A DNA stretch of 45,592 bases, taken from IMG/VR virus record IMGVR_UViG_3300045988_166338; one strand, given 5' to 3'. Every line of letters starts with the position of its first letter. The stretch's first letter is position 1. The notes under the pieces are model-generated. The model saw only the letters and a list, made by a program, of their open reading frames with translations. It had not been told where the DNA came from and did not search any database. The DNA comes from a virus. Positions 846-45,038 of this stretch are shown here, one piece after another. Both the position numbers and the translations under genes were made by a program.

Positions 846-1316
846 ATGTCAAAGATTGATGAACTGTTAAAGCTTGCTATGGAAAAATCGGGCATCCCTG
901 CCTACACGTCCAAACGGTTGCGTAGGAAAGGTATTGCGCCCTACCCCAAGCTTGCTACTCCAGAAGATATAGCGGCACGTAATCGTGGCATTCGTGCCAA
1001 CATACGCAAAGAGCGTGAGTTTCTAGAAAGCTTAACACCTGCACAGCGCAAAGACCTTGCTATGCCCAGCGTCCAACGTAAGACGATGGCAGAGTGCCTG
1101 GAAGAAAATCCCGACTATCTTGCCAAAGTTGAACATAATCTTGAGCGTCAGCAGAACTACGAGCATACGCTCGAACAGAACGTCCTGCACGCCGAAGCGT
1201 GGGAATTGCAGCTGTTCAAAGCTGCAGTCGAAGGCGAGCGTATGCGTCGCAAGATGCTGCGCAAACAACGTGCTATGCACGAAACTCGTGCTAATACTGC
1301 TAATATGGAAGCCTAA
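846..1316 (+). CDS. Hypothetical early protein. Its N-terminus, MSKIDELLK, is related to the tags on the 4883 and 8422 proteins
   Basis: ORF with AAGGAG RBS 8 nt upstream of the ATG at 846. The upstream in-frame ATG at 828 lacks an RBS. Confidence 0.6.
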   Translation: MSKIDELLKLAMEKSGIPAYTSKRLRRKGIAPYPKLATPEDIAARNRGIRANIRKEREFLESLTPAQRKDLAMPSVQRKTMAECLEENPDYLAKVEHNLERQQNYEHTLEQNVLHAEAWELQLFKAAVEGERMRRKMLRKQRAMHETRANTANMEA

Positions 1317-3850: not shown

Positions 3851-4609
3851 ATGTCTGATATTGAAAACAAAGAAAGCAAGGTTGCTGTACGTTCCATCAT
3901 TTTTGAAACGCTGGATGATGCTATCAACAGCGTTGCTGAAAAAGATTACGCCGGTATGGATGACGTGGAACTGGTCGCGTGCCAGACGTCCCTGCCGAAA
4001 AAGGTAATGCTCCAGCTGCAAGGCAAGACCGTGGTCGGGCTGAAAGAAATTCCCATTCCGCAGTTCTCACTGGACTGCTTCGTACCTGTCGAGGGCGAAA
4101 CGGACGAACAGCGTGCCGAACGTATGAACTTGGCTGCTAAAACGATAGCCCTGTACGACAAGTTCCTGCAGAAAGAAGCCATCCGTTTGGCGAAAGCGGA
4201 CTGCATGCCTGCTAACATGGAAGCGTTCTTGGACGTGGTCACTGCTACGCGTGGCGGTGTGGAAATCACCACGAAAGAAACCAAGGAAATCATCACGGAA
4301 TGGTTGCGCGACAACAACCGTGCTACCAAAGAACGCACCGCGACCGACGGCAAGAAGCGTCCTATCTTCTTCGAGTCTGCCAACAAGCTCATCGAATGCA
4401 TCAAAAGTCAGGTGTATGCTATGCAGGTCTTTGCTGGCACGCCTGAAGACTTGGTCATCAAGCTGGTTGACAAGTTCTACGCTGCGGTCTGCGCCGAGTT
4501 CAAAGCGCGCGGTAAGTCCACGGTCGTCGTTGACAAGTGGTACAATAACCGCAACGTCAAAGCCGAAACTGCCACGGTTGAACTGGACGTTATTGACGAC
4601 TTGTTCTAA
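3851..4609 (+). CDS. Abundant early protein. A possible T7 gp2.5-like ssDNA-binding protein (own promoter and terminator, C-terminus ...ELDVIDDLF)
   Basis: 252 aa, GAGGAG RBS. Monocistronic between a strong promoter and a strong terminator. The acidic C-terminus ends in Phe, like the SSB/gp2.5 tails. The function call is inference only. Confidence 0.3.
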   Translation: MSDIENKESKVAVRSIIFETLDDAINSVAEKDYAGMDDVELVACQTSLPKKVMLQLQGKTVVGLKEIPIPQFSLDCFVPVEGETDEQRAERMNLAAKTIALYDKFLQKEAIRLAKADCMPANMEAFLDVVTATRGGVEITTKETKEIITEWLRDNNRATKERTATDGKKRPIFFESANKLIECIKSQVYAMQVFAGTPEDLVIKLVDKFYAAVCAEFKARGKSTVVVDKWYNNRNVKAETATVELDVIDDLF

Positions 4610-4742
4610 GCCGAACCATTGCTACTACTTGATGCGGACTAGTAGCCCACTAGGCTTCTTGTGCCGCACCAACTAAGCACTGCGATACTTCTCGCAGGTT
4701 GGACGACGCAATGTTTGTCAACTAGCACCGCATCAAGTACCA

Positions 4743-4774
4743 AGGCGGCAGGTTTCCCTGCCGCCTATTATTTG
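4743..4774 (+). terminator. Rho-independent terminator: AGGCGGCAGG-tttc-CCTGCCGCCT plus ATTATTTG
   Basis: 10-bp perfect GC-rich stem followed by a T-rich tract, downstream of gene 3851..4609. A second hairpin (GCTACTA..TAGTAGC) sits at 4621..4646. Confidence 0.7.
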
Positions 4775-4882
4775 ACCCTTGCAATAGCCTGCTACACGCT
4801 GGCGGTCTATTGGAAAGGCCAAACAGCGCAAAGATGCGCACCCTTTCCCCTCCACTAACATATAACATAGGAGTAATTTATT

Positions 4883-6646
4883 ATGCCTTCAATTTCTGAA
4901 CTGCTTGCTAAAGCCCGTGCTAAACAGGCACAGGCACAGGCCAAGCAAGATAAGACTGCGCCCGTCACACAGTACGGCATCGCAGCCGTAGCCAAAGCCA
5001 CAGCCCGCGCCGATAAGGTAGCGTTGAAGACTGCGGCCGAAGGCAAGCTTGATAGTACAGGCATCCTGCAAGTGCAAGACCTCGATGCTATCACGCTGGA
5101 TGACAGCCAAGCCAAGGCGTTAGAAACGATTTCACAGCACAAGATGGTCGCGCTAACCGGTGCGGCCGGTACAGGTAAGACCACGGTTCTGCGTGCCTTT
5201 GTTAAGAAAAACCCGCCCACGTTCAAGTGGCAACATATACGTGTGGGCGAAGTGACGGACACGCTGTTCCTGTCGCTGACCGGCAAGGCCGTAGCACAGA
5301 TGCGTCTGGTTCTGCCTAAAGAATACGCCGCGTCCTGCATGACAATCCACTCCGCGCTGGCGGTCTACCCTGAGAAACAGGAAGATGGCAAGCTGCGCTA
5401 CGTTCCGCGCTACCACCAAGGTAACAAGCTGGAGTGCAAGCGTGTCTTCATCGACGAAGCTACGATGTGCAGCGTCCAGCTCTGGAATATGCTGCGTGAA
5501 GCCCTGCCTGACGATTGCAAGGTATGCTTCATCGGCGACATTAATCAGCTGCCGCCTGTAGCAGGACGTCCCATTCTAGCGTACGCACTGATAGCGTTTC
5601 CCTACGCGGCGTTGGAAACTATCCACCGCCAAGCCGAGGAAAGCCCTGTGCTTAATGCCTGCCACAAAATCCTGCGCGGCGAGCCGATTGATACGACCCG
5701 CGGCATGGTTATACGCCAGTGTCCTAACGACCCGGTCGATGCCAGCTACGAGATTGTCAAGCGCATCATCGCACTCTACCACAATGGGCAATACAAGCCG
5801 ATGGAAGACCAGATTATCACGGCCGGCAACACGGACGCGTTAGGACAGGAAGAGTTAAACGCTCGCCTGCTTCCTCACCTGACCCGTGAGGGCAACCCTA
5901 TGCACAAGGTCTTCTATGCACGGCGGTTCCGTACGTTCGCGGTAGGCACCAAGGTGATGTACACAGAGAACGACTATGAGCTGGGCATCTTCAACGGATT
6001 GCAAGGCGTAGTAGAAAGCATCGAGCCTAACCCTGCAGCCGACCCAGACATCGAGTTTGAAAGTATAGGGTTCGGGCGTCCGCTCACGGTAGAGGACGTG
6101 CAAAACCTCGACGACCTGACCGACTACAAACGTAGCGAAGAACTGGGCGTCACAGGCAAGGAAGTCCTCGACGAGGAAGATGCAGGACGTCAGGCTAGCC
6201 ACGTCGTAACCGTCCTGTTCAACGACGGGACAAGGGTCAAGCTGTCAAGAAGTTCTCAGATTGCCAACCTGCAAGTAGCGTTCGTGTGTACCTGCCACAA
6301 GATGCAAGGTTCAGAATGCCGCAAAGCTATCATCATCTGCCACAAATCTCAAGCCCTGCTTCACTCCCGTGAATGGCTGTACACGGCCATATCGCGTGCC
6401 AAGGAAGCGGCTATGATTTTCACCAGCACAACGATTAGCAAGCGCAAACTGACACACCACAACGATGGCGACATAACGCAGACGCTTGCTAACAAGGCAT
6501 CGTTGAACACCAGCATCCAACAATGCATCGACAGCCCGCGTATCTTGGGACGGTCTGCAGCCGAGAAAATCAAGACGTACATCCGCACCGTCATGGCTAA
6601 CAAAGAAGAAGAGCGGCCGCACTGGTTGCCTGACTTGGAGGGCTAA
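4883..6646 (+). CDS. SF1B DNA helicase, RecD/Dda-like
   Basis: Walker A 'LTGAAGTGKTT' and Walker B 'VFIDEATM'. The C-terminal 'CTCHKMQGSECRKAIII' fits the RecD motif VI region. AGGAG RBS. Confidence 0.75.
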   Translation: MPSISELLAKARAKQAQAQAKQDKTAPVTQYGIAAVAKATARADKVALKTAAEGKLDSTGILQVQDLDAITLDDSQAKALETISQHKMVALTGAAGTGKTTVLRAFVKKNPPTFKWQHIRVGEVTDTLFLSLTGKAVAQMRLVLPKEYAASCMTIHSALAVYPEKQEDGKLRYVPRYHQGNKLECKRVFIDEATMCSVQLWNMLREALPDDCKVCFIGDINQLPPVAGRPILAYALIAFPYAALETIHRQAEESPVLNACHKILRGEPIDTTRGMVIRQCPNDPVDASYEIVKRIIALYHNGQYKPMEDQIITAGNTDALGQEELNARLLPHLTREGNPMHKVFYARRFRTFAVGTKVMYTENDYELGIFNGLQGVVESIEPNPAADPDIEFESIGFGRPLTVEDVQNLDDLTDYKRSEELGVTGKEVLDEEDAGRQASHVVTVLFNDGTRVKLSRSSQIANLQVAFVCTCHKMQGSECRKAIIICHKSQALLHSREWLYTAISRAKEAAMIFTSTTISKRKLTHHNDGDITQTLANKASLNTSIQQCIDSPRILGRSAAEKIKTYIRTVMANKEEERPHWLPDLEG

Positions 6647-6650
6647 GCGC

Positions 6651-6869
6651 ATGCCAAGTAAACGCAAGAAGCAACACTACAAACGCTGCGATATGGACGA
6701 GGTAATTGTACGGCTATGCGACCTGTATAAGGACCTCGCTAACGTACTGGATGAACCGTACTACGCAGCAGAGGTAGCGCGCATAATCTACGACCTTACA
6801 GGTGATGTAGACTGGACGCGTAAGCGACAGGAACAATTTGACATCTGGGTAAAGGGAGGCATGCAATGA
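6651..6869 (+). CDS. Hypothetical protein
   Basis: 72-aa ORF immediately after the helicase stop. Confidence 0.45.
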   Translation: MPSKRKKQHYKRCDMDEVIVRLCDLYKDLANVLDEPYYAAEVARIIYDLTGDVDWTRKRQEQFDIWVKGGMQ

Positions 6870-7030
6870 TATTCTGGAAAAGCAAGAAGCAGAAGCTAGC
6901 AGAGCAAGCTAAACGCGAGCAGAAAGAACTGCGGCAGCAATACATGAAAGACTTTATCCTGCAATACATACTGCGCAGACTTGAACAACAAATGCAAGAA
7001 CAACTCAATCACGAGGGAGAACAGGTATGA
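6866..7030 (+). CDS. Small basic coiled-coil protein (54 aa)
   Basis: ATG overlaps the previous stop (ATGcaATGA). Stop overlaps the next start (ATGA). Found by reading the sequence. Confidence 0.35.
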   Translation: MIFWKSKKQKLAEQAKREQKELRQQYMKDFILQYILRRLEQQMQEQLNHEGEQV

Positions 7031-7323
7031 AAATCGTAACTTATAATTCCGTATTTAGCAAACAGGTCTACGGCCAGACCGTAACAACGTCCGCGTCAAC
7101 GTCCATAGTTCTGGACGGCGTTCGCGTTATCAAGTACAGTCCGAACAAGAACTGCACCGTACTGAACTTTGACGTCTATGGTTCCAAGTTCATCACCGGC
7201 AACCACGTCGATACTATCACTGCATTCCTGACTGATGACGGTGCTTCGCAGCTCAACCTCGGCGACATCCCGTACATCAATAGCCAGAACCAGAACCGCG
7301 ACGATGACGATGATTGCGACTGA
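7027..7323 (+). CDS. Hypothetical protein with poly-Asp C-terminus (DDDDDCD)
   Basis: 98-aa ORF, GGGAGAACAGG RBS-like. Confidence 0.5.
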   Translation: MKIVTYNSVFSKQVYGQTVTTSASTSIVLDGVRVIKYSPNKNCTVLNFDVYGSKFITGNHVDTITAFLTDDGASQLNLGDIPYINSQNQNRDDDDDCD

Positions 7324-7987
7324 GGCCGAGCTTCTGGACATCCAGAGGCGTACGCTCGAAGACATCAGCAACCACGCAGACAAGGTGAGAAGCGTCCTGC
7401 TACACGGTACGGCAGAGAAGAAGCAGCAGTTCATCACAGACCTCGGTGTGCTAAACATCTGCGGCACGTGTGAACTGGCGTTCTTCAAAGCCCTGCTATA
7501 CTGCATCACCATACCAAAGGCTATGACCATGGCCGCGTTACAACAACCGCTATATGAACGTACTACCTACGCTGTGCCGTTCCAATATGCCAGCCCAAAG
7601 ACGTTCTTTAGCAGCATGTATGTAGCCAAGACCAGACTGTTAGCCGACGCCACAGGTGAGAGCAGGATGGACATGTACCAAGCTGCGCGTGACAAGATGT
7701 GGAAAGAGTTTACGCCGAACGAGGCTGCCCCGCCTGCACGTATATTCCAGGCGGCCAGCATCCCGTACTGGTGTTTCACGATATATCGAACGCAGGTAGG
7801 CGAGGGCAAGCCACGCGGCTACTTCCCGGAAGCACCCGCTATCAAGCGCGAACCTACTGCGTATACCTTAACAGATATTGGCGAGGAACTTGGAGTTAAA
7901 GAACCACCCCGCCATATCTTAGCAACCAAACCGTGCGCCCGTAAGGTCGTACAAACTTTTACTGAAGAGGACTTAGAAGATGATTAA
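7304..7987 (+). CDS. Hypothetical protein with acidic C-terminus (EEDLEDD)
   Basis: Start set at the internal ATG 7304, which overlaps the previous stop. The ORF-track start 7235 would overlap the upstream gene by about 90 nt. Confidence 0.5.
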   Translation: MTMIATEAELLDIQRRTLEDISNHADKVRSVLLHGTAEKKQQFITDLGVLNICGTCELAFFKALLYCITIPKAMTMAALQQPLYERTTYAVPFQYASPKTFFSSMYVAKTRLLADATGESRMDMYQAARDKMWKEFTPNEAAPPARIFQAASIPYWCFTIYRTQVGEGKPRGYFPEAPAIKREPTAYTLTDIGEELGVKEPPRHILATKPCARKVVQTFTEEDLEDD

Positions 7988-8435
7988 ATCACCCTGCATT
8001 TCTCTGCTAACAGCGGCGCGACGCGCTCAAGTTGCAGATAACTATCCCGAAGCTGACTGCTTCAACGTTACGCCTAACTTTGGCAAGCGTTCAATTCGCA
8101 TCACCGCTATGCGTGGCGACCTGACGCTGGGCAGCATGGAATTTGACAACCTGATTATCCCGCCGCACATCTCGCCGACGCCGGTACTGTATCCTCGCGT
8201 GCCTTTCGTGTACGGCGTGGTAATGTGCACGGTAAACGGGACGCCTGCCTACTACTTCGGCAAAGCGTTGAGTCCGATTGACGACCGCCAGATGATTTCG
8301 ATTGCCGAACTGGACGGTAGCGATTGGAACCCTACGGAAATCGTGGACGACATCACGTCCTGCGTCATTCTGCACGCCCCGATTGGTGAACTGGAAAGCC
8401 TGTACCAGCCTGAGGTGCAAGATGCCGACGATTGA
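7980..8435 (+). CDS. Hypothetical protein with acidic C-terminus (VQDADD)
   Basis: 151-aa ORF overlapping the previous stop. Confidence 0.5.
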   Translation: MIKSPCISLLTAARRAQVADNYPEADCFNVTPNFGKRSIRITAMRGDLTLGSMEFDNLIIPPHISPTPVLYPRVPFVYGVVMCTVNGTPAYYFGKALSPIDDRQMISIAELDGSDWNPTEIVDDITSCVILHAPIGELESLYQPEVQDADD

Positions 8436-8886
8436 TGAGCTGCTAAAGGCACGCGCCGCGCGCCAAGCTCAGGCCAAAGTCCAAAGCCAAAGCCAAAGTC
8501 AAAGTCAACCCGAAGCTAAACCAACTACCGCGCCAACGATTGACCGGCATGAACCTACCTTATCACCTCAAACCATGGCTTTGCCACCCTATGCTCCTGC
8601 ATTACAAGAGCGGCTGAAAGGTCTGGCGGATGAAGAGGACTACATGGACGTTGAGCTTTCTGCACAGTCATTGGCTGAAACCATGAGCGCGGTTATGGCT
8701 ATACCGTATCCGCCGGACGTCTTCATCGACCAGTGTGTTGAGTATGCAAGCCAGGCTTTGGAAAATCAGAAGCGGGTTTACATGCAACGCGTCCTGTCCG
8801 GCGAACGGCAGAGCGGCAAGCGCGACAAGAAGAAAGCCGTGGCGGTTGCTATGACTATCACCAACCTCGACAACCTGTTCGACTAA
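8422..8886 (+). CDS. Hypothetical protein with N-terminal tag MPTIDELLKARAARQAQAK, shared with the helicase, and a (QS)n linker
   Basis: Start at ATG 8422 overlaps the previous gene end. Contains a QSQSQSQSQ stretch encoded by a hexanucleotide repeat. Confidence 0.5.
   Translation: MPTIDELLKARAARQAQAKVQSQSQSQSQPEAKPTTAPTIDRHEPTLSPQTMALPPYAPALQERLKGLADEEDYMDVELSAQSLAETMSAVMAIPYPPDVFIDQCVEYASQALENQKRVYMQRVLSGERQSGKRDKKKAVAVAMTITNLDNLFD
8474..8504 (+). repeat. Hexanucleotide coding microsatellite (CCAAAG/TCAAAG) x5 encoding (QS)n
   Basis: 'ccaaagtccaaagccaaagccaaagtcaaagtcaa' read from the sequence. The unit is in frame, so slippage would change linker length without a frameshift. Confidence 0.6.
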
Positions 8887-8887
8887 C

Positions 8888-9793
8888 ATGACAGTCATAG
8901 TATCATCGTCAACCATCGCGTCCCTGATTAACTGTCCCAGACGGTTCATCCTGAACTATCATCACACGGAACGTACGCCGTCGCTGGCTACCGAAGTGGG
9001 GACGGCAGTGCATCAGGCTTTACAGGACGCAACGGAAACGGGCGATAGACGTGCCGCGTTAAAGGCACTTATCAAACGCTATCCGTATGAACTGTGGCTG
9101 ACCGCCACGAACAAGGAGCGGGCCTCTCGCTCCTTGCTATCTTGTGCTGTTGCTATCGATACGGCCCTCGATACCCTCGACCTGAACGGTATGCGTCTGG
9201 CCGAAGTGAATGGCAGGAAAGCTACAGAGTTGGACTTCCTGCTGACGCTGACGGACAAAGATGGCAAGCCGTTAGATGTCGCGTACTCCGGCAGTATCGA
9301 TAGCGTATTCGTTGACAGTACGGGCATGCCTATCATCACGGACTACAAGACAACGACCAAGGATATAAACCTGGCGGTGCTGCAATACTCGCACTCGTTG
9401 CAGGCCTGCATCTACGCCATCGTTGTAGCGTCCGCGTTAGGCATTGAGCCGACCGACATCGAGTACCAGTACATCATCATTAAGCTTGACAACGGCATGG
9501 GCGAAGTGCAGACCGAACGGGCCAGGGTAACGCCTGCGAAACTTAACGAGGTTCGTGGCTACCTCAAGGTCTACACTACCGTCCTGCAACAAATGCTGGC
9601 TGAGCGGAACTTCCCGCCCAACTGTTCAAGCTGTGCATCTTTCGGCAGGCCCTGCTACTTCGCTAACCAGTGCGACATGGCCCACGTCAACGAAGCGATA
9701 ACGTCAGCGTTGACTACCAGCCCGGCGTACAGGTATGCGTATCTGGAAACGGGCAAGACCGATTACGACATCAGAGGGAGGCTATCACTATGA
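8888..9793 (+). CDS. Cas4/RecB-family PD-(D/E)xK exonuclease with a 4-Cys Fe-S cluster
   Basis: N-terminal Cys (NCPRRF), 'GSIDSVF' and 'ITDYKTT' nuclease motifs, and the C-terminal 'CSSCASFGRPCYFANQC' triad, as in Cas4/AddB nucleases. Confidence 0.6.
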   Translation: MTVIVSSSTIASLINCPRRFILNYHHTERTPSLATEVGTAVHQALQDATETGDRRAALKALIKRYPYELWLTATNKERASRSLLSCAVAIDTALDTLDLNGMRLAEVNGRKATELDFLLTLTDKDGKPLDVAYSGSIDSVFVDSTGMPIITDYKTTTKDINLAVLQYSHSLQACIYAIVVASALGIEPTDIEYQYIIIKLDNGMGEVQTERARVTPAKLNEVRGYLKVYTTVLQQMLAERNFPPNCSSCASFGRPCYFANQCDMAHVNEAITSALTTSPAYRYAYLETGKTDYDIRGRLSL

Positions 9794-10677
9794 TGCAAAC
9801 AGGAATACCACACCAACTTGACAACTTGTTTGCCCTGTTCTACGGTGCGCCCAAGTCCGGCAAGACAACGTTCGCGTTGCAGCCGTGTGAAAGCAACTAT
9901 GCAATCACGGTGCTGGACTTGGAAAACAACTTGTACCCTGCAAGCAGGTGGAAGAACTGCGATAACATCAACGTCATCAACCTGAAGTGGGAGGGCGAAG
10001 CGAACCAAACGCCCGCTATCATTTTCCTGCTGGCCTTGCGGGACGCACGGCGCAGACCTTTTACCTGGGACTGCACCGACAAACAGATGGCCAAGGCAAC
10101 GTTAAACCCGACGCACATTTATTGCCGGGTTAATCTTGCCAAGGCACGGCCGGACGACTTGCTCGTACTGGACAGCTGGACGATGTTCAGCCAACAGATT
10201 ACGGCTGCCAAAGTAGCGAACGCGTATAGCGTCAACGCCCAGACGGCTGAGATTTCCCAGCCGATGTGGGGCAACATGGTACGCGACGCGGAAGGAACCA
10301 TCAACATACTGAACAGCATACCTGTTATCAGTAAGGTCGTTCTGGCTCACGAGTACATGGAACCGAGCCTGACTACGCCGATGAGCGTGACACGCGCCCA
10401 TGGCCAAAGTCTGGCAAAAAGTTTCACGGTAGTAGCAAGGTTTCTGAGCGGGAACATTGACATCATAGCGGGCGCCAACAAGGCGCAGCGTGAGAAAAAA
10501 GTTCTTGACAAATACACGTTCAGTATGCTATTATCAGAATTAGGGAGAACAGCTCCCACTACTTTCACACCCAGCGAAGCGTTCGTCTTCGAGATGGGCG
10601 ATGAAATGGCCAAGCTTGTAGCAAACGATAGCAAGCTTGCCATCAATACCACAAACGTTAACGTTAACATAAAATAG
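9790..10677 (+). CDS. AAA_24/Sak4-like RecA-fold ATPase (recombination or replication accessory)
   Basis: Walker A 'YGAPKSGKTTFAL' near the N-terminus. Start ATG 9790 overlaps the upstream stop, with GGGAGG RBS. Confidence 0.5.
   Translation: MMQTGIPHQLDNLFALFYGAPKSGKTTFALQPCESNYAITVLDLENNLYPASRWKNCDNINVINLKWEGEANQTPAIIFLLALRDARRRPFTWDCTDKQMAKATLNPTHIYCRVNLAKARPDDLLVLDSWTMFSQQITAAKVANAYSVNAQTAEISQPMWGNMVRDAEGTINILNSIPVISKVVLAHEYMEPSLTTPMSVTRAHGQSLAKSFTVVARFLSGNIDIIAGANKAQREKKVLDKYTFSMLLSELGRTAPTTFTPSEAFVFEMGDEMAKLVANDSKLAINTTNVNVNIK
10505..10534 (+). promoter_or_regulatory. Sigma70-like promoter inside the 3' end of the ATPase gene: TTGACA-18-TATTAT with TGc
   Basis: 'gttcTTGACAaatacacgttcagtatgcTATTAT' precedes gene 10689..11159. 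Confidence 0.5.
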
Positions 10678-10688
10678 GAGTTATCACT

Positions 10689-11159
10689 ATGGCCGAAAAA
10701 GTTGTAATGTCTTTGTCCACGCAAGAAGAAGTCGCTGCCAAATCTTTGGGTATCACACCGAACTTCATCTACCACTTCGTTGTGAAGAAAGGTGAATATT
10801 CCGTCACGACAGGCACGTCCAAAACGGGCGAACCGTTCAACATCCCGCAGATTGAATATGATTGCGAAGTCATGTCCGAAACGACGGGTGCACTGCCCGA
10901 AGAAAGCGTCAAAGGCTTACATTGCAGACTGCGCGTCGGCGTCCGTAAAGGCGAACCGAACGCTGCTATCCTGGGTTACAACCGCGGCGTGTTGGAAGCG
11001 GCCGGCATGAAGCTGTCCTGCTACAACGACACGGAAAGCATGTTCAGCGAAGTCATCGGACAGGAATTCGACGGCTACGTCAAAGAAGATAAACAGGGCT
11101 ACGCCTACATCGATGCCAACAGCCTGCGTCGCATTAACGCAGCCCCGGCTCAGGCGTAA
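10689..11159 (+). CDS. Hypothetical protein
   Basis: 156-aa ORF, AGGAG RBS, followed by a strong terminator. A likely abundant early product. Confidence 0.55.
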   Translation: MAEKVVMSLSTQEEVAAKSLGITPNFIYHFVVKKGEYSVTTGTSKTGEPFNIPQIEYDCEVMSETTGALPEESVKGLHCRLRVGVRKGEPNAAILGYNRGVLEAAGMKLSCYNDTESMFSEVIGQEFDGYVKEDKQGYAYIDANSLRRINAAPAQA

Positions 11160-11243: not shown

Positions 11244-12158
11244 ATGAAAGATAAACGATTACACTTCAGCCCCATGCTACTGCGAAACGTCAAGATGCGT
11301 CCCGCCCAGCTGGACAGGCTGAAAGGTTTGACGGCACAGCCAAAGATTGACGGCGTGCGTCTGGCTATCGGCATCAAGTCTTGGTCTGACAGTCCAATGT
11401 TCTTTTCACGTTCCGGACAGGAAATCAGCCCGGTCGTCAAGGAAACACTGACTGATATGCTGTCCGAAGTCAAAGACAGCTCTCTGACTAACTACCAGCT
11501 GTACGACTGCGAGCTGGTCTACGACAAGGACTGTGCTGCTACGACAGGTATCCTGCACGCCAAGCACAAGGAACTCGACCAGTCCAAACTGGAGCTGTAC
11601 ATCTTCGACACCATCCAGCTGGACGGCAACGGCAATCCGTGCTGCTTCTCTACGCTAGCGTTCCGGATGGTACAGCTGGAAGTGATAGGCAAGATGTTCA
11701 CCGACAAGCGCGTACATATCGTACCATGCTGGCAGCACGCCGGGCACGATAGTTCTGTACATCTTGCACAGAAGTTCGCTAATGCACATGACCTACCGCT
11801 TGAGGGCTACGTCCTGAAGCCAGAAAACAGCCAGTATCTTGAGGGGCAACGCCTGCCTGGCAGCTACAAGTTCAAGGTATCGACCGAGGCCAAGGCTACG
11901 GTTATCGCTATCATGCCGCAGACCGACAGCCAAGGCAACTGCAAACACCTAGCCGGCACGCTGGTCTGCAAGATAGGCGACGCCGACGTCAACGTCACAG
12001 TCGCGGCCGACAACAAGGTACGCAAAGCTATCTGGGACAAGGCCGGGCTAATTACCAAAGACAAGCCGACAGTCACGGTTGAGCTGTTTAATTGTCAGAG
12101 CGGCAAGGACAATCAGTTCCGTATGCCGCGTTACGTTTCTGGTTTGGAGGGTTACTAA
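11244..12158 (+). CDS. ATP-dependent DNA ligase
   Basis: Nucleotidyltransferase motif I 'KIDGVR', motif III 'YDCELVY', motif IV 'EGYVLKP' and motif V 'YKFKV' in the canonical order. Confidence 0.8.
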   Translation: MKDKRLHFSPMLLRNVKMRPAQLDRLKGLTAQPKIDGVRLAIGIKSWSDSPMFFSRSGQEISPVVKETLTDMLSEVKDSSLTNYQLYDCELVYDKDCAATTGILHAKHKELDQSKLELYIFDTIQLDGNGNPCCFSTLAFRMVQLEVIGKMFTDKRVHIVPCWQHAGHDSSVHLAQKFANAHDLPLEGYVLKPENSQYLEGQRLPGSYKFKVSTEAKATVIAIMPQTDSQGNCKHLAGTLVCKIGDADVNVTVAADNKVRKAIWDKAGLITKDKPTVTVELFNCQSGKDNQFRMPRYVSGLEGY

Positions 12159-13937: not shown

Positions 13938-14417
13938 ATGGAAAACACTGAAAACAAAGAAAACAATAGCACCCCCACCGCGCGTGAAGAAGCGCAGGCC
14001 ACAATTATCAACGCCGTTCGTCACCGCTTGGAGCGAACGCTTGACGAAATCAAAGATTGGAACATCGAAACGTTTCCTGATGCTAACCAGTCCGGCCAGT
14101 TAATGAAGCTGGAAGAGGAGCTGCACGAATACGTCGTCGTTCACGACGACAGCGAAAATAGCGACAAAGAATTAGCAGACGTTATGATTGTATGCGCAGG
14201 TCTGCGTCGCTGGGGCAGCTTGGTAGGACAGCATATCTTAGCCATGATACTGGCCGGTGCCAATGCTTCGCAGGTAAATGCCTTGCTAGACTTGGTAGAT
14301 AATAAGATGGCCAAGAACCGTTCCCGCGTCTGGCTCAAAGATGGTGATGGCAAGTATCACCACGACGTCAAGCTGGACGAACCGGCCAACGCCAATGGCG
14401 AAAACGCACCTGCGTAA
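13938..14417 (+). CDS. MazG-like nucleotide pyrophosphohydrolase (putative)
   Basis: 'KLEEELHEY' (EExxE) and 'ELADVMIV' (ExxD) motifs, in a protein of about 160 aa typical of the all-alpha NTP-PPase family. Confidence 0.4.
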   Translation: MENTENKENNSTPTAREEAQATIINAVRHRLERTLDEIKDWNIETFPDANQSGQLMKLEEELHEYVVVHDDSENSDKELADVMIVCAGLRRWGSLVGQHILAMILAGANASQVNALLDLVDNKMAKNRSRVWLKDGDGKYHHDVKLDEPANANGENAPA

Positions 14418-14727
14418 ACCGCACGTACTGATAGCTGCAACACTGCAAAGCCCGCACGTTTCATGGCTCGATAAGGCCACGTTGGTGCGGGCATTGCTCT
14501 ACTCGGACAGGCTGGCATTCCGCCAAGATGCTAAGCCTGAACGGGTAGATGAAGCTATCAAGTTAGAACTTACCTGGCTATCACCGCTGATGCAAGTTTC
14601 CTCACTCGGTATCTTTTCTGCTATCGAACTTGCCGAGAACTACTGGCAGACAAGGGAGGGTGAGGAAACGCTGCGGTTCTACGTTGAAGATTACTTAGGG
14701 AGTTTACGAAAGCATGATTATATCTAA
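14395..14727 (+). CDS. Hypothetical protein (start uncertain)
   Basis: ORF fills the gap between the MazG-like and polymerase genes. First plausible ATG is 14395. Confidence 0.35.
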   Translation: MAKTHLRKPHVLIAATLQSPHVSWLDKATLVRALLYSDRLAFRQDAKPERVDEAIKLELTWLSPLMQVSSLGIFSAIELAENYWQTREGEETLRFYVEDYLGSLRKHDYI

Positions 14728-17269
14728 ACGCCTATCACCGAGGCCCATCTTCGCGCTCTACGATATGCACGAGATGAGCAAGCCTCAACTTATGAAAGCC
14801 TTAATGAACGTGATGACCTCACAATACATGAAGGCGTTGACCAAAGAGTTCATTAACATCACGCCGATTACAACAACGAATGGCATCCCGGCAGACAGCG
14901 TAGTGCTGGTCTATTCGTCAGGGTTTGCTAAGACATTCATCAACAACGGCAAGTTCTCGGACTACAACGGCAGCGTCTACCACATGGGACAGACCACGTT
15001 CATCATCGGCCTTTCACTTAACTACATCCGTTGCCTGTTGATACAGAGCCCGCGTGGCGACCAGGAAGATACGGTTATTAAGGGACACTACCTGTGTGCC
15101 TTTAACATCTACAAGGCCTGGCGATTTGCCAGTGGCGACTTCGACACAGACCATCACTACGGGTTCTACTACACGTTGATTAACGAGCCTGAGGAATGGG
15201 ACGCTACCAAACAGTACATCGAACAGAACAGCCACAAAATATTCGGCATTTCGTTCGATATTGAAACGGCTGGCTTCCCGAAGTTCATCTCTGCGTTCGG
15301 GTTCACGTTGATGATGGGCAGCATCGAAAAGCCGGAGTTCAAATCCTACTGTATCTCGATGGGCGTCCACTCGTATCCGTGGCACATTCGGGCCATGCAG
15401 TATCTATGCTACCATCCTGCACCGAAGATTGCACACAACGGCGCGTATGACTGTACCGTCCTGTTGCGTTATCGCATCCCGGTCTGGAATATGCTGTACG
15501 ATACAATGCTCATGGCCCATTCCTTGATATGCGATGCGCCTAAACGTTTAAGCGACTGTGCTTCGTACTACCTGCCTGACTACGTGTACTGGAAATCAGA
15601 GATTACAGGGAAAGAAAATGGCATTAGCAACGAAGAAAGCAACAACGACTCAGAAGATAAACATGGCGTACCGGCGACGCAAGAGGGCCGGCTGGTATAT
15701 TATAAGTACTGCGCCAAAGATACGTACTATACAGCGTGCATCTGCCTGGAAATGCTTGCTCTGTTCCAACAGAAACCCTGGGCGGTCAAGAACTACTGTC
15801 TGGTACACTTCCTGCAATACCGTGTAGGTATGTTTATGGGGCTGGCCGGCATGCCGATTGACAAGGCCAAGTTCGACGTCTTTGTCAAGGAAGTGTGTGC
15901 TACACGGGACGAGCTGCTGTCCGACCTGCGTACCTACGCCAAGGATGAGCTGTTCAACCCGGCCTCGCCGAAAGAGGTTCAGCAATACCTGTATGGCACG
16001 CTAGGCCTCAAGCTTCCACGTGGCATCCGACTCAAGAAACCTAAAGCGCCGCGTCCAAGTTCAAAGCCTGCGTCGCGTCCAAAGGCCATTTCCGTAACCG
16101 ACCTCAATGACCTGGACTTGTTTAGCACGTCGGACATCGGGCCGGCCCAGAAACCTGAACAGGACTTCTCGCTGTACCCGACGGACAAGGTCGCGTTGCG
16201 GTTCCTGATTGACCAGAACCCCGAATACGAAACGCAGATACAGAAGCTGCTGGACTATCGGTGGTATGCTAAGGTCATCAGCAACTACTTGATGAGCAAT
16301 ACGCTGCTGGTCGATAGCACGACGGACAAGGACGTCAAGGTTCTGCTGTACAATCCGAGTATTGCAAAGACAGTAACGTGCCGGTACGGCGGTGGTGAGT
16401 CCAACCTCGGCGTCGGCGCGTATCACTTGAACCTGCCACCCGGCCTATGGAAATGCATCAAGGTTCCTGACGGGCATGTACGGTACAGCATCGACTACTC
16501 GCACAGCGATGACTACTTCGTAGCGTTCTACTCTGGCGTTCCGACCATGATGGACAACGTGGTACGCACCGACCTTGACTTGCACATGAAACATGCATCG
16601 CTTATCTTCCAGCGTCCGTATGACTACTTAATGGAACACAAGAAAGACCAGAACAGCGAAGCACCATTGCTGCGTAAGCTTACTAAGAGCATCGGCCACG
16701 GATGCAAATACCTGATGGGTGGCTACACCATGTACACTCACATGGGTGACCCGAACATCTGTGCTGCTATTGATGCCTTGCACGCCGATGTCGATAAACA
16801 CAGCCTCGACCAGAAGATACAGTTCGCGTCCTACCTGCAGAGCTTGTTCTACAAACAGTACGACGGCCTGACACAATGGCACAAGGACGTGTTCACGAAG
16901 CTGATGGCTAATCCGGACAGGCTAATCACAGTAGGCAACTGGACACGTCAACTGTTAGCACCGGCCAGCTGGTTCTCAGTACACAGTGGTAGCGTTGCAC
17001 AGTACGGTCAGGCCGGCACGTCATCGAACAGTAACGCGTTCCTGCGCAAGTTCTTTCGCAAGCCTCTTGACAGTTCGTCTTACCTCTTCGCCCAAGTCCA
17101 CGATGCTATGGACGGGTTTGCAAGGAACGAGGACGAAGTCAAAGCCATAGCGAAGATTATGGAGGAACCGATTACCGTGACGGACATCTACGGCACGACC
17201 CGTACATTCTCAGTGGCAACTGAAACTGAGGAATTTTGGCCGGAAAGCACCAAAGAAAATAATGCTTGA
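14714..17269 (+). CDS. Family A DNA polymerase with a 3'-5' exonuclease domain and a roughly 170-aa N-terminal extension
   Basis: Exo I 'FDIETAG', Exo II 'IAHNGAYDCTVL' and Exo III 'YCAKDTYYT'. Pol motif C 'AQVHDAMDG' (QVHDE-like). The TGA stop is embedded in the next promoter's -35. Confidence 0.8.
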   Translation: MIISKRLSPRPIFALYDMHEMSKPQLMKALMNVMTSQYMKALTKEFINITPITTTNGIPADSVVLVYSSGFAKTFINNGKFSDYNGSVYHMGQTTFIIGLSLNYIRCLLIQSPRGDQEDTVIKGHYLCAFNIYKAWRFASGDFDTDHHYGFYYTLINEPEEWDATKQYIEQNSHKIFGISFDIETAGFPKFISAFGFTLMMGSIEKPEFKSYCISMGVHSYPWHIRAMQYLCYHPAPKIAHNGAYDCTVLLRYRIPVWNMLYDTMLMAHSLICDAPKRLSDCASYYLPDYVYWKSEITGKENGISNEESNNDSEDKHGVPATQEGRLVYYKYCAKDTYYTACICLEMLALFQQKPWAVKNYCLVHFLQYRVGMFMGLAGMPIDKAKFDVFVKEVCATRDELLSDLRTYAKDELFNPASPKEVQQYLYGTLGLKLPRGIRLKKPKAPRPSSKPASRPKAISVTDLNDLDLFSTSDIGPAQKPEQDFSLYPTDKVALRFLIDQNPEYETQIQKLLDYRWYAKVISNYLMSNTLLVDSTTDKDVKVLLYNPSIAKTVTCRYGGGESNLGVGAYHLNLPPGLWKCIKVPDGHVRYSIDYSHSDDYFVAFYSGVPTMMDNVVRTDLDLHMKHASLIFQRPYDYLMEHKKDQNSEAPLLRKLTKSIGHGCKYLMGGYTMYTHMGDPNICAAIDALHADVDKHSLDQKIQFASYLQSLFYKQYDGLTQWHKDVFTKLMANPDRLITVGNWTRQLLAPASWFSVHSGSVAQYGQAGTSSNSNAFLRKFFRKPLDSSSYLFAQVHDAMDGFARNEDEVKAIAKIMEEPITVTDIYGTTRTFSVATETEEFWPESTKENNA

Positions 17270-17678: not shown

Positions 17679-19025
17679 ATGGCATACAGCAACAAATTAT
17701 TCCGGGACGTTGATGCGTTCTGCGCTCATTTTGAATGTCCCAAGAGTTTCACGTATTGGTCAATCATTCAGGCAACATCCATTTTAGCAGCAGGTCAATC
17801 TAAACTTATCATTGGAAGTGATGCGATACCTTTAAACCTTTTCACAATTTTGTGTGGCAGCCCGTCCGTCAAGGCCAAGCAAGCTATCAAGTTGTGCCGC
17901 GATATGCTGGACGATAGCCAGTACGAACATTTCCTGCCGGACAACCTGGGACTGCGTAAAACGTCAGGTTTGCTGGTAGCCATGTTGCGTAAGCAGTCAA
18001 GCGATGCTATCGAGGAGGACGATATTAGCAGCCTGGAGTTGGCTACGTCCGCACCGAAGCAAAACAAAAACGCACGGGACTGTGCCGCGTTCTTCGGCGA
18101 GAATACCGGGCCGGTAGCGTCGAACTATTCGACACCGCAGTACACCAACACCACCCATGCCAAAGCCTATGTCAGCGATGACTTTGCATCGTTCTGCTCA
18201 GGCGCACAGACAGACTTCTACGGCCTGCTCATGGCCATGTGGGAGTGCAAGAACTACAGCCTGTCCAGTCCCAAGGGCATGTTGAAGCTGACAGACCCGT
18301 ACATGAACATCTTCGCGTCCATGACGCAGCTAGGCCTGATGGATACGTTTCCGGACTCGTACGTTGGCATGAACGCGTTGTCATCGTTCATCGTAGTGTT
18401 CGAGGAAAAGCCGCGTCAACGTTGCCCGTACAGAGGCCAGCTTGACCAGCGTAGTTTCATCGACATCACGCAGGCCTTGGCATTTGTCCGGGACAACCCG
18501 TTGACCTTGTCGATGTCCGCGGACGCGATGAAGGCCGGGTCGGAGTATTATGAACAGCCGGCCCTGGAAGAAGATACAAGACTGCTAACCTATGCGGGCC
18601 TGCGTCATAATCAACTTCACCGTGTAGCAGCCTGTCTGGCACTGTACGAGAACCGCAACGTAATTTCCGGTAGCGATATTCATGATGCTAATGCGTTGCT
18701 ATCCGAGGCAGAGTCGCGTCTGGGTGATGCGTTAGGTGAGTTCGGCAACAGCAAGATTTCAGCGGGCCGGCAGAAATGTATGGACTTATTGAAGCGTGAG
18801 GAAATCATGAAGAAGAGTCTGTACCGCGCTCGCTGTGCAAGCTTCTTGTATAGCAAGGACTTTGAAATCTTCCTGACAGATATGATGGTGCAAAAGAAAA
18901 TCATCGAAGAATGGAACGCGGCCGCGAACGACTACAATGTAATCTACAACCCGAACTGGAGGAAGAAAAATGGGGCAATTAGCATGGCTGACCTTAGTGA
19001 TTGTACTAATGGTGGCACTAATTAA
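17679..19025 (+). CDS. Hypothetical 448-aa protein
   Basis: Large ORF with GGAGG RBS. No recognisable catalytic motif. Confidence 0.6.
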   Translation: MAYSNKLFRDVDAFCAHFECPKSFTYWSIIQATSILAAGQSKLIIGSDAIPLNLFTILCGSPSVKAKQAIKLCRDMLDDSQYEHFLPDNLGLRKTSGLLVAMLRKQSSDAIEEDDISSLELATSAPKQNKNARDCAAFFGENTGPVASNYSTPQYTNTTHAKAYVSDDFASFCSGAQTDFYGLLMAMWECKNYSLSSPKGMLKLTDPYMNIFASMTQLGLMDTFPDSYVGMNALSSFIVVFEEKPRQRCPYRGQLDQRSFIDITQALAFVRDNPLTLSMSADAMKAGSEYYEQPALEEDTRLLTYAGLRHNQLHRVAACLALYENRNVISGSDIHDANALLSEAESRLGDALGEFGNSKISAGRQKCMDLLKREEIMKKSLYRARCASFLYSKDFEIFLTDMMVQKKIIEEWNAAANDYNVIYNPNWRKKNGAISMADLSDCTNGGTN

Positions 19026-19675: not shown

Positions 19676-20359
19676 ATGAACGAAGAATACGGATTGAGGC
19701 CGGTAATTGCACTGTGCGGCCGGAACGGCGCCGGCAAGTCTACACTGGCCAAAGCTTTAGCTGACAGCTGGGCTACGCGGGACGACCTGTTCATCGGGCC
19801 GCACCTCACCAAAGTTATGAGTTTCGCGGAACCGCTCAAAGACTCGTTGATAGCGATGCTGAACGTACCGCGCAAACTGTTCTACCCTGAAACGAAGCAG
19901 GATAGGATTGACCGTGAGACCATCTATCGGCCACTGGTAAATGCATTTAACGATAGCAAGATGTCGGCCCGTAAGCTTATGCTGGACTACGGCGCTGCGA
20001 TGCGTGAAGCGTTTGGCAGGGATATTTGGGCAAACATTATGAACTATCGTATGCAGGATTTCTTTACCAGGCACTCGGTAGAAAGCCCAGTGCTAATCAT
20101 TGACGACGTTCGGTTCGAGAATGAGTTTGTCTTGCTGCACAGCTGGAACGCGTTGTTCGTGGCTGTCCATGTCGAAGGTGATGATGTAAGCAAGGTGGAC
20201 ATCAGAAGCCCAGAATGGCAGTGGACTGACAACCTTGTGCAGACAAAGAGTATGGAGATTACTACCAACCACACGGAAGAAGCCTTGAGGCGTAACGTTC
20301 ACGAAATTACTCAGGTTGCAAACAGGAAGTTTCGTATGTTTCTTCCCGATTACGACTAA
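19676..20359 (+). CDS. P-loop dNMP-kinase-like protein
   Basis: N-terminal Walker A 'LCGRNGAGKSTLA'. Size and the 'IIDDVRFENE' region fit the phage deoxynucleoside monophosphate kinase family. Confidence 0.45.
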   Translation: MNEEYGLRPVIALCGRNGAGKSTLAKALADSWATRDDLFIGPHLTKVMSFAEPLKDSLIAMLNVPRKLFYPETKQDRIDRETIYRPLVNAFNDSKMSARKLMLDYGAAMREAFGRDIWANIMNYRMQDFFTRHSVESPVLIIDDVRFENEFVLLHSWNALFVAVHVEGDDVSKVDIRSPEWQWTDNLVQTKSMEITTNHTEEALRRNVHEITQVANRKFRMFLPDYD

Positions 20360-44510: not shown

Positions 44511-45038
44511 TTATTTGCCCAGGGCTATTTGCTGCAAAGCGTTTGTGATAGCTGTTAAGCTATAGCCATTTTCTTTAGCCCTTTCGATGCCAGTCGCTAA
44601 GTCCAGCTTGATAAGCTTAATTAGTTTATCGTCGTCGCTTTCAGGCGGGCAATAAATGCCTTCTTTAATCAAGTCCGCTAAAAGGTTGGCCCAAAAAGCA
44701 AAACGTGTTTTAAACGCGTTAAACTTTTCTTTACCGTCTTTTACAACTATCGGTCTACCTTTTAGGTCATCTTTAAACCCTAATAACAGCATGCCAAAAT
44801 CGGCAATCATCGCCGAAACGTCCTTTTGCGGTCTTATCGCGTAGCGAAAGCCCATTTCAGCAAAGGCGGCGTAATACGCCACTTTAGCAGTGTTATTGTC
44901 AACCTTGCTTAAAGCGTCATCAGCGTTCAATTCTATGTTTTTAACACCTTCAAAGTCCGCCGTGTCAACCATAACCTTTGCTTTGTTAGCTGCTTTCTCT
45001 GCTTGCTTAGCAGTGATGATATCTTGAATAGTAGCCAT
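44511..45038 (-). CDS. Hypothetical protein in an isolated AT-richer minus-strand unit (moron or accessory candidate)
   Basis: AAGGAG RBS before ATG 45038. Sits between the genome-end noncoding region and the late promoter, and visibly AT-richer than the flanks. Confidence 0.5.
   Translation of the reverse strand: MATIQDIITAKQAEKAANKAKVMVDTADFEGVKNIELNADDALSKVDNNTAKVAYYAAFAEMGFRYAIRPQKDVSAMIADFGMLLLGFKDDLKGRPIVVKDGKEKFNAFKTRFAFWANLLADLIKEGIYCPPESDDDKLIKLIKLDLATGIERAKENGYSLTAITNALQQIALGK

Follow-up and report, generated by a model that had tools for sequence, protein, structure and literature searches.

In the virus record IMGVR_UViG_3300045988_166338 of IMG/VR, a stretch of 45,592 nucleotides (the window hereafter, that is, the whole stretch of DNA analysed), a RecD/Dda-like helicase and an unrelated protein of 154 amino acids (aa) begin with similar peptides of about 20 residues. 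The latter protein, whose gene starts at 8422 and lies just upstream of a nuclease gene, is called PNP here. Judging from the comparisons described below, the tag on these two proteins is an old, selected short linear motif that is common to hundreds of related phages, and it probably docks both proteins to a common partner. The genome in the window is podophage-like and complete, or nearly so, and it belongs to a very large clade of 45-50-kb podophages that are mostly metagenomic and almost uncultured. By helicase similarity (about 30% identity), its nearest cultured relatives are the Pseudomonas phages of the PaMx41/119X/PaP2 group (Fredfastierviridae) and Polaromonas phage Tiera.

The tag on the helicase and the PNP

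The original prediction concerned three N-termini, those of the helicase (ATG at 4883, MPSISELLAKARAKQAQAQAKQDK), the 154-aa open reading frame (ORF; ATG at 8422, MPTIDELLKARAARQAQAKVQSQ) and the first early, rightward gene (ATG at 846, MSKIDELLKLAMEKSG), and all three were quoted exactly as they stand in the sequence. Shine-Dalgarno-like sequences precede the three ATGs at the usual distance (AGGAG for 4883, GAGGTG for 8422 and AAGGAG for 846), and the gene callers of other projects made the same choice of start in the homologues. The pattern I[SD]ELL occurs four times in the six frames of the 45.6-kb window, where a rough estimate gives an expected count of about 0.25, and three of the occurrences are residues 4-8 of the helicase, 8422 and 846 proteins. 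The fourth, MCISELL, is the start of a 44-aa antisense ORF inside the ligase gene (11655-11789, - strand). It was rejected as a member, since relatives have VSELL or VCKIL in place of ISELL, and the occurrence at 11789 is attributed to chance because the relatives do not conserve the antisense ORF. When helicase residues 1-20 were aligned locally with the six frames, the 8422 protein scored 51 and the next best match 34. Thus, the proposed module of about 20 residues is borne out for the helicase and the 8422 protein, whereas for gene 846 the likeness extends over about nine residues with an IDELLK core.

On the helicase, the tag comprises residues 1-21 (MPSISELLAKARAKQAQAQAK; 4883..4945, + strand), as delimited by sequence, matrix score and AlphaFold2 (AF2) prediction, with the core motif SISELLAKARAK at 4889-4924 (+), and it continues into a stretch rich in Ala, Lys, Arg and Gln. 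With an alignment of 71 sequences, AF2 predicts a helix at residues 4-20 with a predicted local distance difference test score (pLDDT) of 74-79, while residues 22-62 (22-41 and 47-62) fall below 50 and the enzyme core exceeds 90. The Pfam matches (AAA_19, 5.6e-23; AAA_30, 8e-22; UvrD_C_2, 3.2e-11; SH3_13, 1e-8) all begin at residue 72. Therefore, the tag is predicted to be a short helix that is joined to the core by a disordered tether, which spans residues 22-71 (4946..5095, +). Inside this tether, a further conserved element at 4964-5017 (YGIAAVAKATARADK / VTQYGIAAVAKATARADK) has the form LFGTGLTKKxAExAEK in most relatives, according to the family alignment and the homologue N-termini, and it was seen on helicases only. 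The core itself (5096..6646, +) contains the P-loop ATPase domains 1A and 2A together with the RecD-type SH3 insertion, as expected for an SF1B RecD/Dda-like helicase, and tblastn searches gave hits to phage genes annotated as Dda-like helicases.

The PNP has a comparable layout. Its tag, defined by conservation and by an AF2 helix at residues 4-21, covers residues 1-21 (MPTIDELLKARAARQAQAKVQ; 8422..8484, +). It is followed by a hypervariable, disordered linker with an SQ repeat (8485..8592, +; pLDDT below 50 at residues 19-51), which varies in sequence and length, and by a C-terminal four-helix domain with an acidic-hydrophobic tail (8593..8886, +), which was delimited by an alignment across all relatives. 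In the AF2 model, residues 22-57 are disordered and residues 58-153 form a four-helix bundle (pLDDT 65). The C-terminal 90 or so residues align with an identically placed protein in each relative, and a hidden Markov model of the C-terminal domain finds the PNP in every fetched locus covering the region, including PaMx41 (gp41), except Tiera. The family comprises 158 representatives after clustering at 50% identity. The PNP has no match in Pfam or PHROGs, and a Foldseek search of its model against the PDB gave nothing below E = 0.4. From its sequence, the PNP looks like a conserved, unannotated, adaptor-like protein made up of a tag, a linker, a four-helix domain and an acidic C-terminal tail.

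Within the clade of the window, residues 1-17 of the PNP (MPTIDELLKARAARQAQ) are virtually invariant in about 90 cluster representatives, while the linker changes in both sequence and length. A conserved island (helix pLDDT 74-79) beside hypervariable, disordered sequence (below 50) is what characterizes a short linear motif. In the 68% clade of the PNP, the N-terminus reads MTP[DE]ELK[AT]FLATGK[KR]P, which appears to be the same hydrophobic-x-x-hydrophobic-L-A-x-x-K/R pattern in a shifted register. The SQ repeat of the linker (QSQSQSQSQ, 8479-8505) is hypervariable even among variants that are otherwise 80-97% identical (P0125-P0240). Consequently, there are unusually many 90%-identity clusters for one small protein.

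Is the tag kept on the same proteins in relatives? A megablast search of window positions 4600-9000 against phage records found no near DNA match among deposited phages. Among 120 helicase homologues, which are mostly 31-36% identical to the window helicase and come from 45-50-kb contigs, 54 carry the motif within the first 30 residues, for example as MPSIAELLKQSR, MPTIKELLAAKRA, MTDFKSLLAHK, MSKSLKDLLNKS and MPTFAEILAKRAK. Their tags follow the consensus [S/T/D/N]-hydrophobic-x-[E/D/S]-L-L-[A/K/N]-x-x-[K/R], which may be read as a helix N-cap, a hydrophobic triad (i, i+3, i+4) and a basic continuation. For the helicase and the PNP together, the motif is [S/T/D/N]-hydrophobic-x-[E/D]-L-L-[A/K]-x-x-[K/R]. 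In every fetched genome, the PNP orthologue begins with the motif or with the variant of its lineage. The helicase and PNP tags are MPSISELLAKARAK and MPTIDELLKARAAR in the window, MPTLQEIIEAKK and MPTLQEILAAKK in locus L009 (63% helicase identity), MATNLQQQMANLLKARM (..QQQMANLLKA) and MDIFQQMQNLKAMSK (..FQQMQNLKA) in L010 (44% helicase identity), MPSIAELLKQSR and VDINSLLAKSKQQKK in L011, MPTFAELLSG and MAEPSLLDLLNKNK in L013, MSTNKSLSDLLKKS and MSIQNLINKSKSK in L014, and MTDFKSLLAHK and MSKFADLLKADK in L015. In PaMx41, they are MAINFKDLIKAKSAK (helicase gp52) and MDFKAFREKARQQ (gp41). In Tiera, the motif opens a PNP-like 280-aa protein, and the helicase has its copy inside the annotated coding sequence. 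In two loci, both proteins have switched to an alternating, strand-like variant, namely MSLKINLPDKK and MSRLRVQLNQRK in L017, and MKLTGLTIPSAKV (MKLTGLTIP) and MKLNIGGNKP in L018. Hence the tag is retained on the helicase and the PNP of every fetched relative, down to helicase identities of about 31-36%, and the reservation attached to the original prediction, that the similarity might exist at the nucleotide level only and be absent from related phages, does not apply.

About 30% of PNPs, and some helicases, also have a strand-like motif (hydrophobic-K-hydrophobic-N-hydrophobic-G/P, for example KPFKLNLG or FKLNIP) or NPFxxLxK behind the helical tag (N-terminal regions P0241-P0390 and P0001-P0120). 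In some lineages, both proteins have the strand-like motif at their extreme N-terminus (MKLNIP.., MKFNFG..). The spacing of its hydrophobic residues is reminiscent of the hexapeptide clamp-binding motifs, without the Gln.

The composition of the tag bears on two other explanations. The tag is terminal and forms an amphipathic helix in which Lys or Arg come after three hydrophobic residues. It could thus be a weak membrane-targeting helix that gathers replication and recombination proteins at the inner membrane, and the terminal membrane-targeting helices of MinD, FtsA and SecA are broadly similar to it. However, specific residues are kept (the N-cap, the acidic position 4 and the LL pair) rather than amphipathicity alone, the hydrophobic face is small, and some lineages swap the motif for an alternating strand-like one (MKLNIP, FKLNLG) on both proteins, so that membrane targeting is improbable. 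With three or four Lys or Arg in about 12 residues, the tag could also be a basic, arginine-rich-motif-like arm that strengthens the binding of both proteins to DNA or RNA. Its ARAARQAQAK stretch is loosely like the arginine-rich peptides of the lambda N type. Yet the best-conserved positions are the hydrophobic triad and the acidic residue, not the basic ones, and the basic tail is variable (Lys, Arg, Gln, Asn, Ser) and in some cases missing (MPTFAELLSGSDEH). A nucleic-acid-binding arm is thus very unlikely.

The likeness of the helicase and PNP tags was also assessed with a position matrix trained only on helicase tags, with the clade of the window left out. By this matrix, the window helicase tag itself reaches 22.7 bits. 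The PNP side consisted of 146 representatives retrieved by a whole-protein profile, which match mostly over the C-terminal domain. At a threshold of at least 10 bits, the matrix recognizes 62 of the 146 PNP N-termini and none of 730 internal control windows; at no less than 8 bits, the counts are 75/146 and 6/730. The recurrence of the tag on unrelated proteins is thus beyond chance, and chance similarity is ruled out by the matrix test together with the six-frame count.

Then, could the similarity have arisen at the level of DNA or mRNA? The original prediction had offered a duplicated 5' gene segment as its second reading. In a broader form, the likeness would come from recent duplication or gene conversion of the 5' DNA, or from an mRNA element at the start codon, such as a translational operator, and the peptide would have no function. 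All three window examples do lie directly at start codons, and genes 846 and 8422 share 16 of 18 nucleotides over IDELLK. Nevertheless, in the window, synonymous positions differ at random between the tags of the helicase and the PNP: identical residues have the same codon in 2/9 cases, where roughly 3-4/9 are expected from codon usage, and over five genomes the codons agree in 11/32 cases, as codon usage predicts. The codon analysis therefore rules out recent duplication or gene conversion, and the duplicated segment has to be abandoned. An mRNA-level operator is ruled out by the peptide pattern being kept with different codons in hundreds of distant relatives and by the internal and C-terminal copies of the motif described below. 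Taken as a whole, an origin without peptide function is extremely improbable.

The two tags also vary together. In 12 genomes, the mean similarity score of helicase and PNP tags is 26.4 within genomes and 18.3 +/- 1.9 between genomes (permutation p ~5e-5). Such correlated change of the peptides without homogenisation of the DNA argues for co-evolution with a shared partner, and not for gene conversion.

Copies of the motif are found away from the N-terminus as well. In some helicases, it lies 10-55 residues in; PaMx41 gp41 and the Tiera 280-aa protein each have a second, internal copy; and the RecA-like ATPase of many lineages, discussed below, ends in a tag-related peptide after a low-complexity linker. 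This independence of position speaks for a docking motif, and against a co-translational signal, an RNA element at the start codon or an N-degron. A signal for degradation or for recognition by an unfoldase at the N-terminus, which would time the turnover or remodelling of both proteins, would suit the mostly extreme N-terminal position of the tag, and the N-terminal ClpX recognition classes (lambda O, Dps) resemble it loosely. In addition to the internal and C-terminal copies, however, several copies occur within one protein, and it is hard to see why a lytic phage should keep degrons on core enzymes, so that we regard this explanation as most unlikely. A T4-type capsid-targeting sequence was considered too, as such sequences are cleaved at I/L-x-E and the tags contain ISE or IDE. 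It was rejected because the carriers are early or middle replication proteins and the motif is also internal and C-terminal.

Candidate partners of the tag

A common docking peptide was the first reading of the original prediction. We infer the binding itself, and consider it probable, from the conservation at the peptide level, the disordered tethers, the co-variation within genomes and the N-terminal, internal and C-terminal copies. In the proposed mechanism, the tag would act as an N-capped amphipathic helix at the free end of a long disordered tether, and its three hydrophobic residues would insert in one groove of the common partner. The helicase and the PNP would thereby be brought to one site or compete for it.

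The partner is most likely encoded by the phage. Our tentative choice, which we hold to be possible, is a core-only RecA/Sak4-like ATPase (9790..10677, +), which matches Pfam AAA_24 at 2.3e-4, below the curated cutoff, and whose PaMx41 orthologue carries the annotation Rad51/RecA-like. It is preferred for three reasons. The ATPase of many relatives shows the motif itself on a C-terminal tether; the genes of the PNP, the nuclease, the ATPase and an SSB-like protein form a conserved block; and it is known that partners of Sak4-type ATPases can be recruited by terminal peptides, the tails of phage SSB (single-stranded DNA-binding protein) recruiting the ATPases themselves (PMC5928155). The order PNP-nuclease-ATPase is kept in all loci, with small genes sometimes inserted between them.

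The ATPase ends in ...ATFNNLLKKEAK in L011, ...NKLQSLLGKAQ in L013, ...AKLTGLLNKK in L014, ...KPSFLAGLKKK in PaMx41 and ...KPLSLKEKLALK in Tiera, and the loci listed with a tag-like ATPase C-terminus are L011, L013, L014, L015, L019, L020, L032 and L034. When scored with the 8-residue core of the matrix, the ATPase C-termini of the standard-tag lineages all (8/8) surpass the 95th percentile of the controls, which were 737 other C-termini. Taken together, the 17 ATPase lineages score higher than the controls (Mann-Whitney p = 3e-6). It is conceivable, but doubtful, that the tag is a trans-acting copy of a self-association peptide of the ATPase, so that the helicase and the PNP would nucleate or cap ATPase assemblies on single-stranded DNA. 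The two proteins would then mimic this peptide, as the BRC repeats mimic the RAD51 oligomerisation motif. Since the ATPase of the window ends in NVNVNIK, the idea of mimicry is drawn from other lineages.

Several observations weigh against the ATPase, or against a phage-encoded partner in general. At the C-terminus of the ATPase, the motif matches less well than in the helicase and PNP tags, and NVNVNIK (10654-10674) has an alternating pattern instead of the tag motif; in the clade of the window, the ATPases end in NVNVNIK, NVNVNIRK, NVNVNLSSK or NVNVNLR, all with alternating hydrophobic residues. A search of the tag profile against PDB sequences gave no match. Furthermore, an early gene with a tag-like N-terminus (846; PaMx41 gp55) fits a host partner better, and the near-constant consensus across distant phages, whose helicases share just 31-36% identity, could reflect a conserved host protein.

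The last two points belong to the main rival, in which the same docking motif would bind a conserved hub of the host (the replicative helicase, SSB, RNA polymerase or a chaperone/unfoldase, for instance), and phage proteins, early take-over proteins among them, would connect to the machinery of the host or compete for it. First early genes with tag-like N-termini do occur in three lineages (846 in the window, gp55 of PaMx41 with MANSSFLKSLLQ, and that of L014 with MFKLNINKSK), and a 145-aa protein of Tiera joins the tag to a C-terminal DDDIPF, the tip of proteobacterial SSB. On the other hand, the tags co-vary lineage by lineage within genomes, which a co-evolving phage partner explains more easily, and the tags of the window fail the definition of the motif that binds the beta clamp. 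Altogether, a host hub seems rather unlikely.

The beta-clamp-binding motif is defined as Q-phi-x-[L/M]-[F/L] or Q-phi-x-[L/M]-x-[F/L] and is N-terminal in Hda (PMC11139829). Like the tag, the clamp motifs are short linear motifs in disordered termini, and they occur on many unrelated replication proteins that compete for one pocket. In contrast, the spacing of the tag is helical (i, i+3, i+4), and SISELL, TIDELL and KIDELL do not begin with the Gln of position 1, while position 4, which has to be Leu or Met, is Glu whichever register is taken. The clamp is therefore an unlikely partner, as the tags do not follow the published definition (PMC11139829). No clamp gene was seen in the phage.

As for partners encoded by the phage, an alternative to the ATPase is a conserved 156-aa protein encoded downstream of it (10689..11159, +), which, from the family alignment, is a possible SSB. 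One orthologue weakly matches phrog_378, single-strand DNA binding protein (2.7e-4). The protein of the window has no significant match in Pfam or PHROGs, and a profile search of the family against PDB sequences gave nothing meaningful.

Other possible carriers and the replication-recombination module

Gene 846 had been placed beside the helicase and the PNP as an equal third member, but only part of this claim stands. Its N-terminus (MSKIDELLKLAMEKSG; 846..893, +) shares M-x-x-IDELLK with the PNP, that is, seven of the first nine residues, and the most divergent homologue retains NVDELLLLALEK. However, it reaches 1.1 bits on the family matrix and lacks the basic continuation. The homologues of gene 846 are confined to a narrow clade with 66-89% identity, and residues 1-40 are all conserved, without a variable tether. 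Gene 846 has no significant match in Pfam or PHROGs. It is best regarded as a weak, lineage-restricted candidate, which may be a genuine lineage-specific member, although the case is weak.

A possible fourth tag, MATIQDIITAKQAEKAANKAK, is the N-terminus of a 175-aa protein (44976..45038, - strand; ATG at 45038 with AAGGAG 8 nucleotides upstream) and scores 6.5 bits. Its positional counterpart in L012, a possible homologue, starts with MKLNDIKSAIEAKKAEERK (10.9 bits). The Tiera 145-aa protein (L019, 9156-9593) carries the N-terminal tag MTTFKEKLAAKLA and ends in ...DDMDDDIPF. By its sequence, it looks like an adaptor between the partner of the tag and the proteins that bind the SSB tip.

There is also a second shared terminal peptide, an acidic-hydrophobic C-terminal tail of the form L-D-x-x-x-D-L-F. 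The PNP ends in ...TNLDNLFD (8860-8883), and a 252-aa protein (3851-4609) ends in ...ELDVIDDLF (4580-4606). The acidic tail is kept in the L009, L010 and L012 orthologues as ILDNLDDLI, SLDDIADLF and SLDDLDTLF, and most PNP representatives have ILNSLDGLNF or similar tails. In distant relatives, an ELDLEDLGDLV-like tail is present on a leftward gene beside the early region (L011 6539-7279, L014 6237-6974, L015 6585-7382 and L017 6593-7330, all on the - strand). The tails of the PNP and the 3851 protein resemble those of the SSB and T7 gp2.5 type. For the 3851 family, there was no significant match in Pfam or PHROGs, and a profile search against PDB sequences gave nothing meaningful.

In the window, the + strand carries the early and middle genes (about 0.8-20.4 kb) and the - strand the structural genes. 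A terminator-like hairpin at 4743-4766 (+), with 10 pairs (8 GC) followed by a T-rich tail, lies 115 nucleotides upstream of the helicase start. This hairpin is strong, and the helicase therefore probably starts a new transcription unit. The PD-(D/E)XK nuclease (8888..9793, +; Pfam PDDEXK_1, 6.8e-20) starts one base past the stop codon of the PNP. The replication-recombination module further includes an ATP-dependent ligase (from 11244), a family-A polymerase (14714-17269), a primase (17679-19025; phrog_14296, 1e-23) and a dNMP kinase (19676-20359), and a dATP/dGTP pyrophosphohydrolase-like protein (13938-14417) is also encoded. Additional genomes were sought with the PNP or ATPase profiles in IMG/VR and JGI metagenomes, which added only a few loci.

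Known docking peptides and the meaning of the tag

Terminal docking peptides organise replisomes in model systems, such as SSB tips, clamp-binding motifs and T7 tails. The tag would work in a similar way, as one class of peptide on unrelated replication proteins, but its sequence, charge and terminus set it apart from all of these. In T7, the acidic C-terminal tails of the gp4 helicase-primase and the gp2.5 SSB contact the same site on the gp5/thioredoxin polymerase. The situation here is similar in that two unrelated replication proteins of one phage bear a similar short terminal peptide. However, the T7 tails are C-terminal and acidic with an aromatic end, whereas the tag is mostly N-terminal and helical, with hydrophobic and basic residues. 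The bacterial SSB tip (DDDIPF) is likewise a terminal peptide on a disordered tether, and the module of the window likewise includes a Sak4-like ATPase, but the tip has the opposite charge and terminus. In addition, SSB is one hub that shows its tip to many clients, while here several clients show the same tag. The tag, being N-terminal and net basic, does not fit acidic tails of the SSB-tip or T7 type; the PNP tail (NLDNLFD) and that of the 3851 protein (ELDVIDDLF) do, and it is the PNP's own C-terminal tail that resembles the SSB tip.

The RAD51 oligomerisation motif FxxA, through which this RecA-family ATPase self-associates, is copied by the BRC repeats of BRCA2, which thereby control or recruit the ATPase, and its RecA counterpart is an N-terminal helix plus strand. 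Here, the core-only ATPase of many relatives ends in a motif that resembles the tag carried by other proteins. The spacing differs, being phi-x-x-L-L in the tag, so the F-x-x-A core of a BRC-like mimic is not present, and the ATPase of the window ends in a different peptide.

The motif and the PNP family are both absent from Pfam, PHROGs and the PDB, and no paper describing them was found. Thus, the kind of peptide is known, namely a terminal peptide that docks to a hub, while this motif and the PNP family appear to be undescribed. The tag would provide a first architectural role, that of a tethered adaptor, for a core gene family without a match in Pfam, PHROGs or PDB folds, and it is a sequence signature for annotating the genomes of the clade. 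As a simple handle, the 12-residue peptide could be used to pull out the hub of the replication-recombination module, and the motif is directly testable because cultured relatives exist (the PaMx41/119X/PaP2 group and Tiera). If the tag is in fact a copy of the self-association peptide of the ATPase, it would be a phage counterpart of the BRCA2-RAD51 control across a very large clade of podophages.

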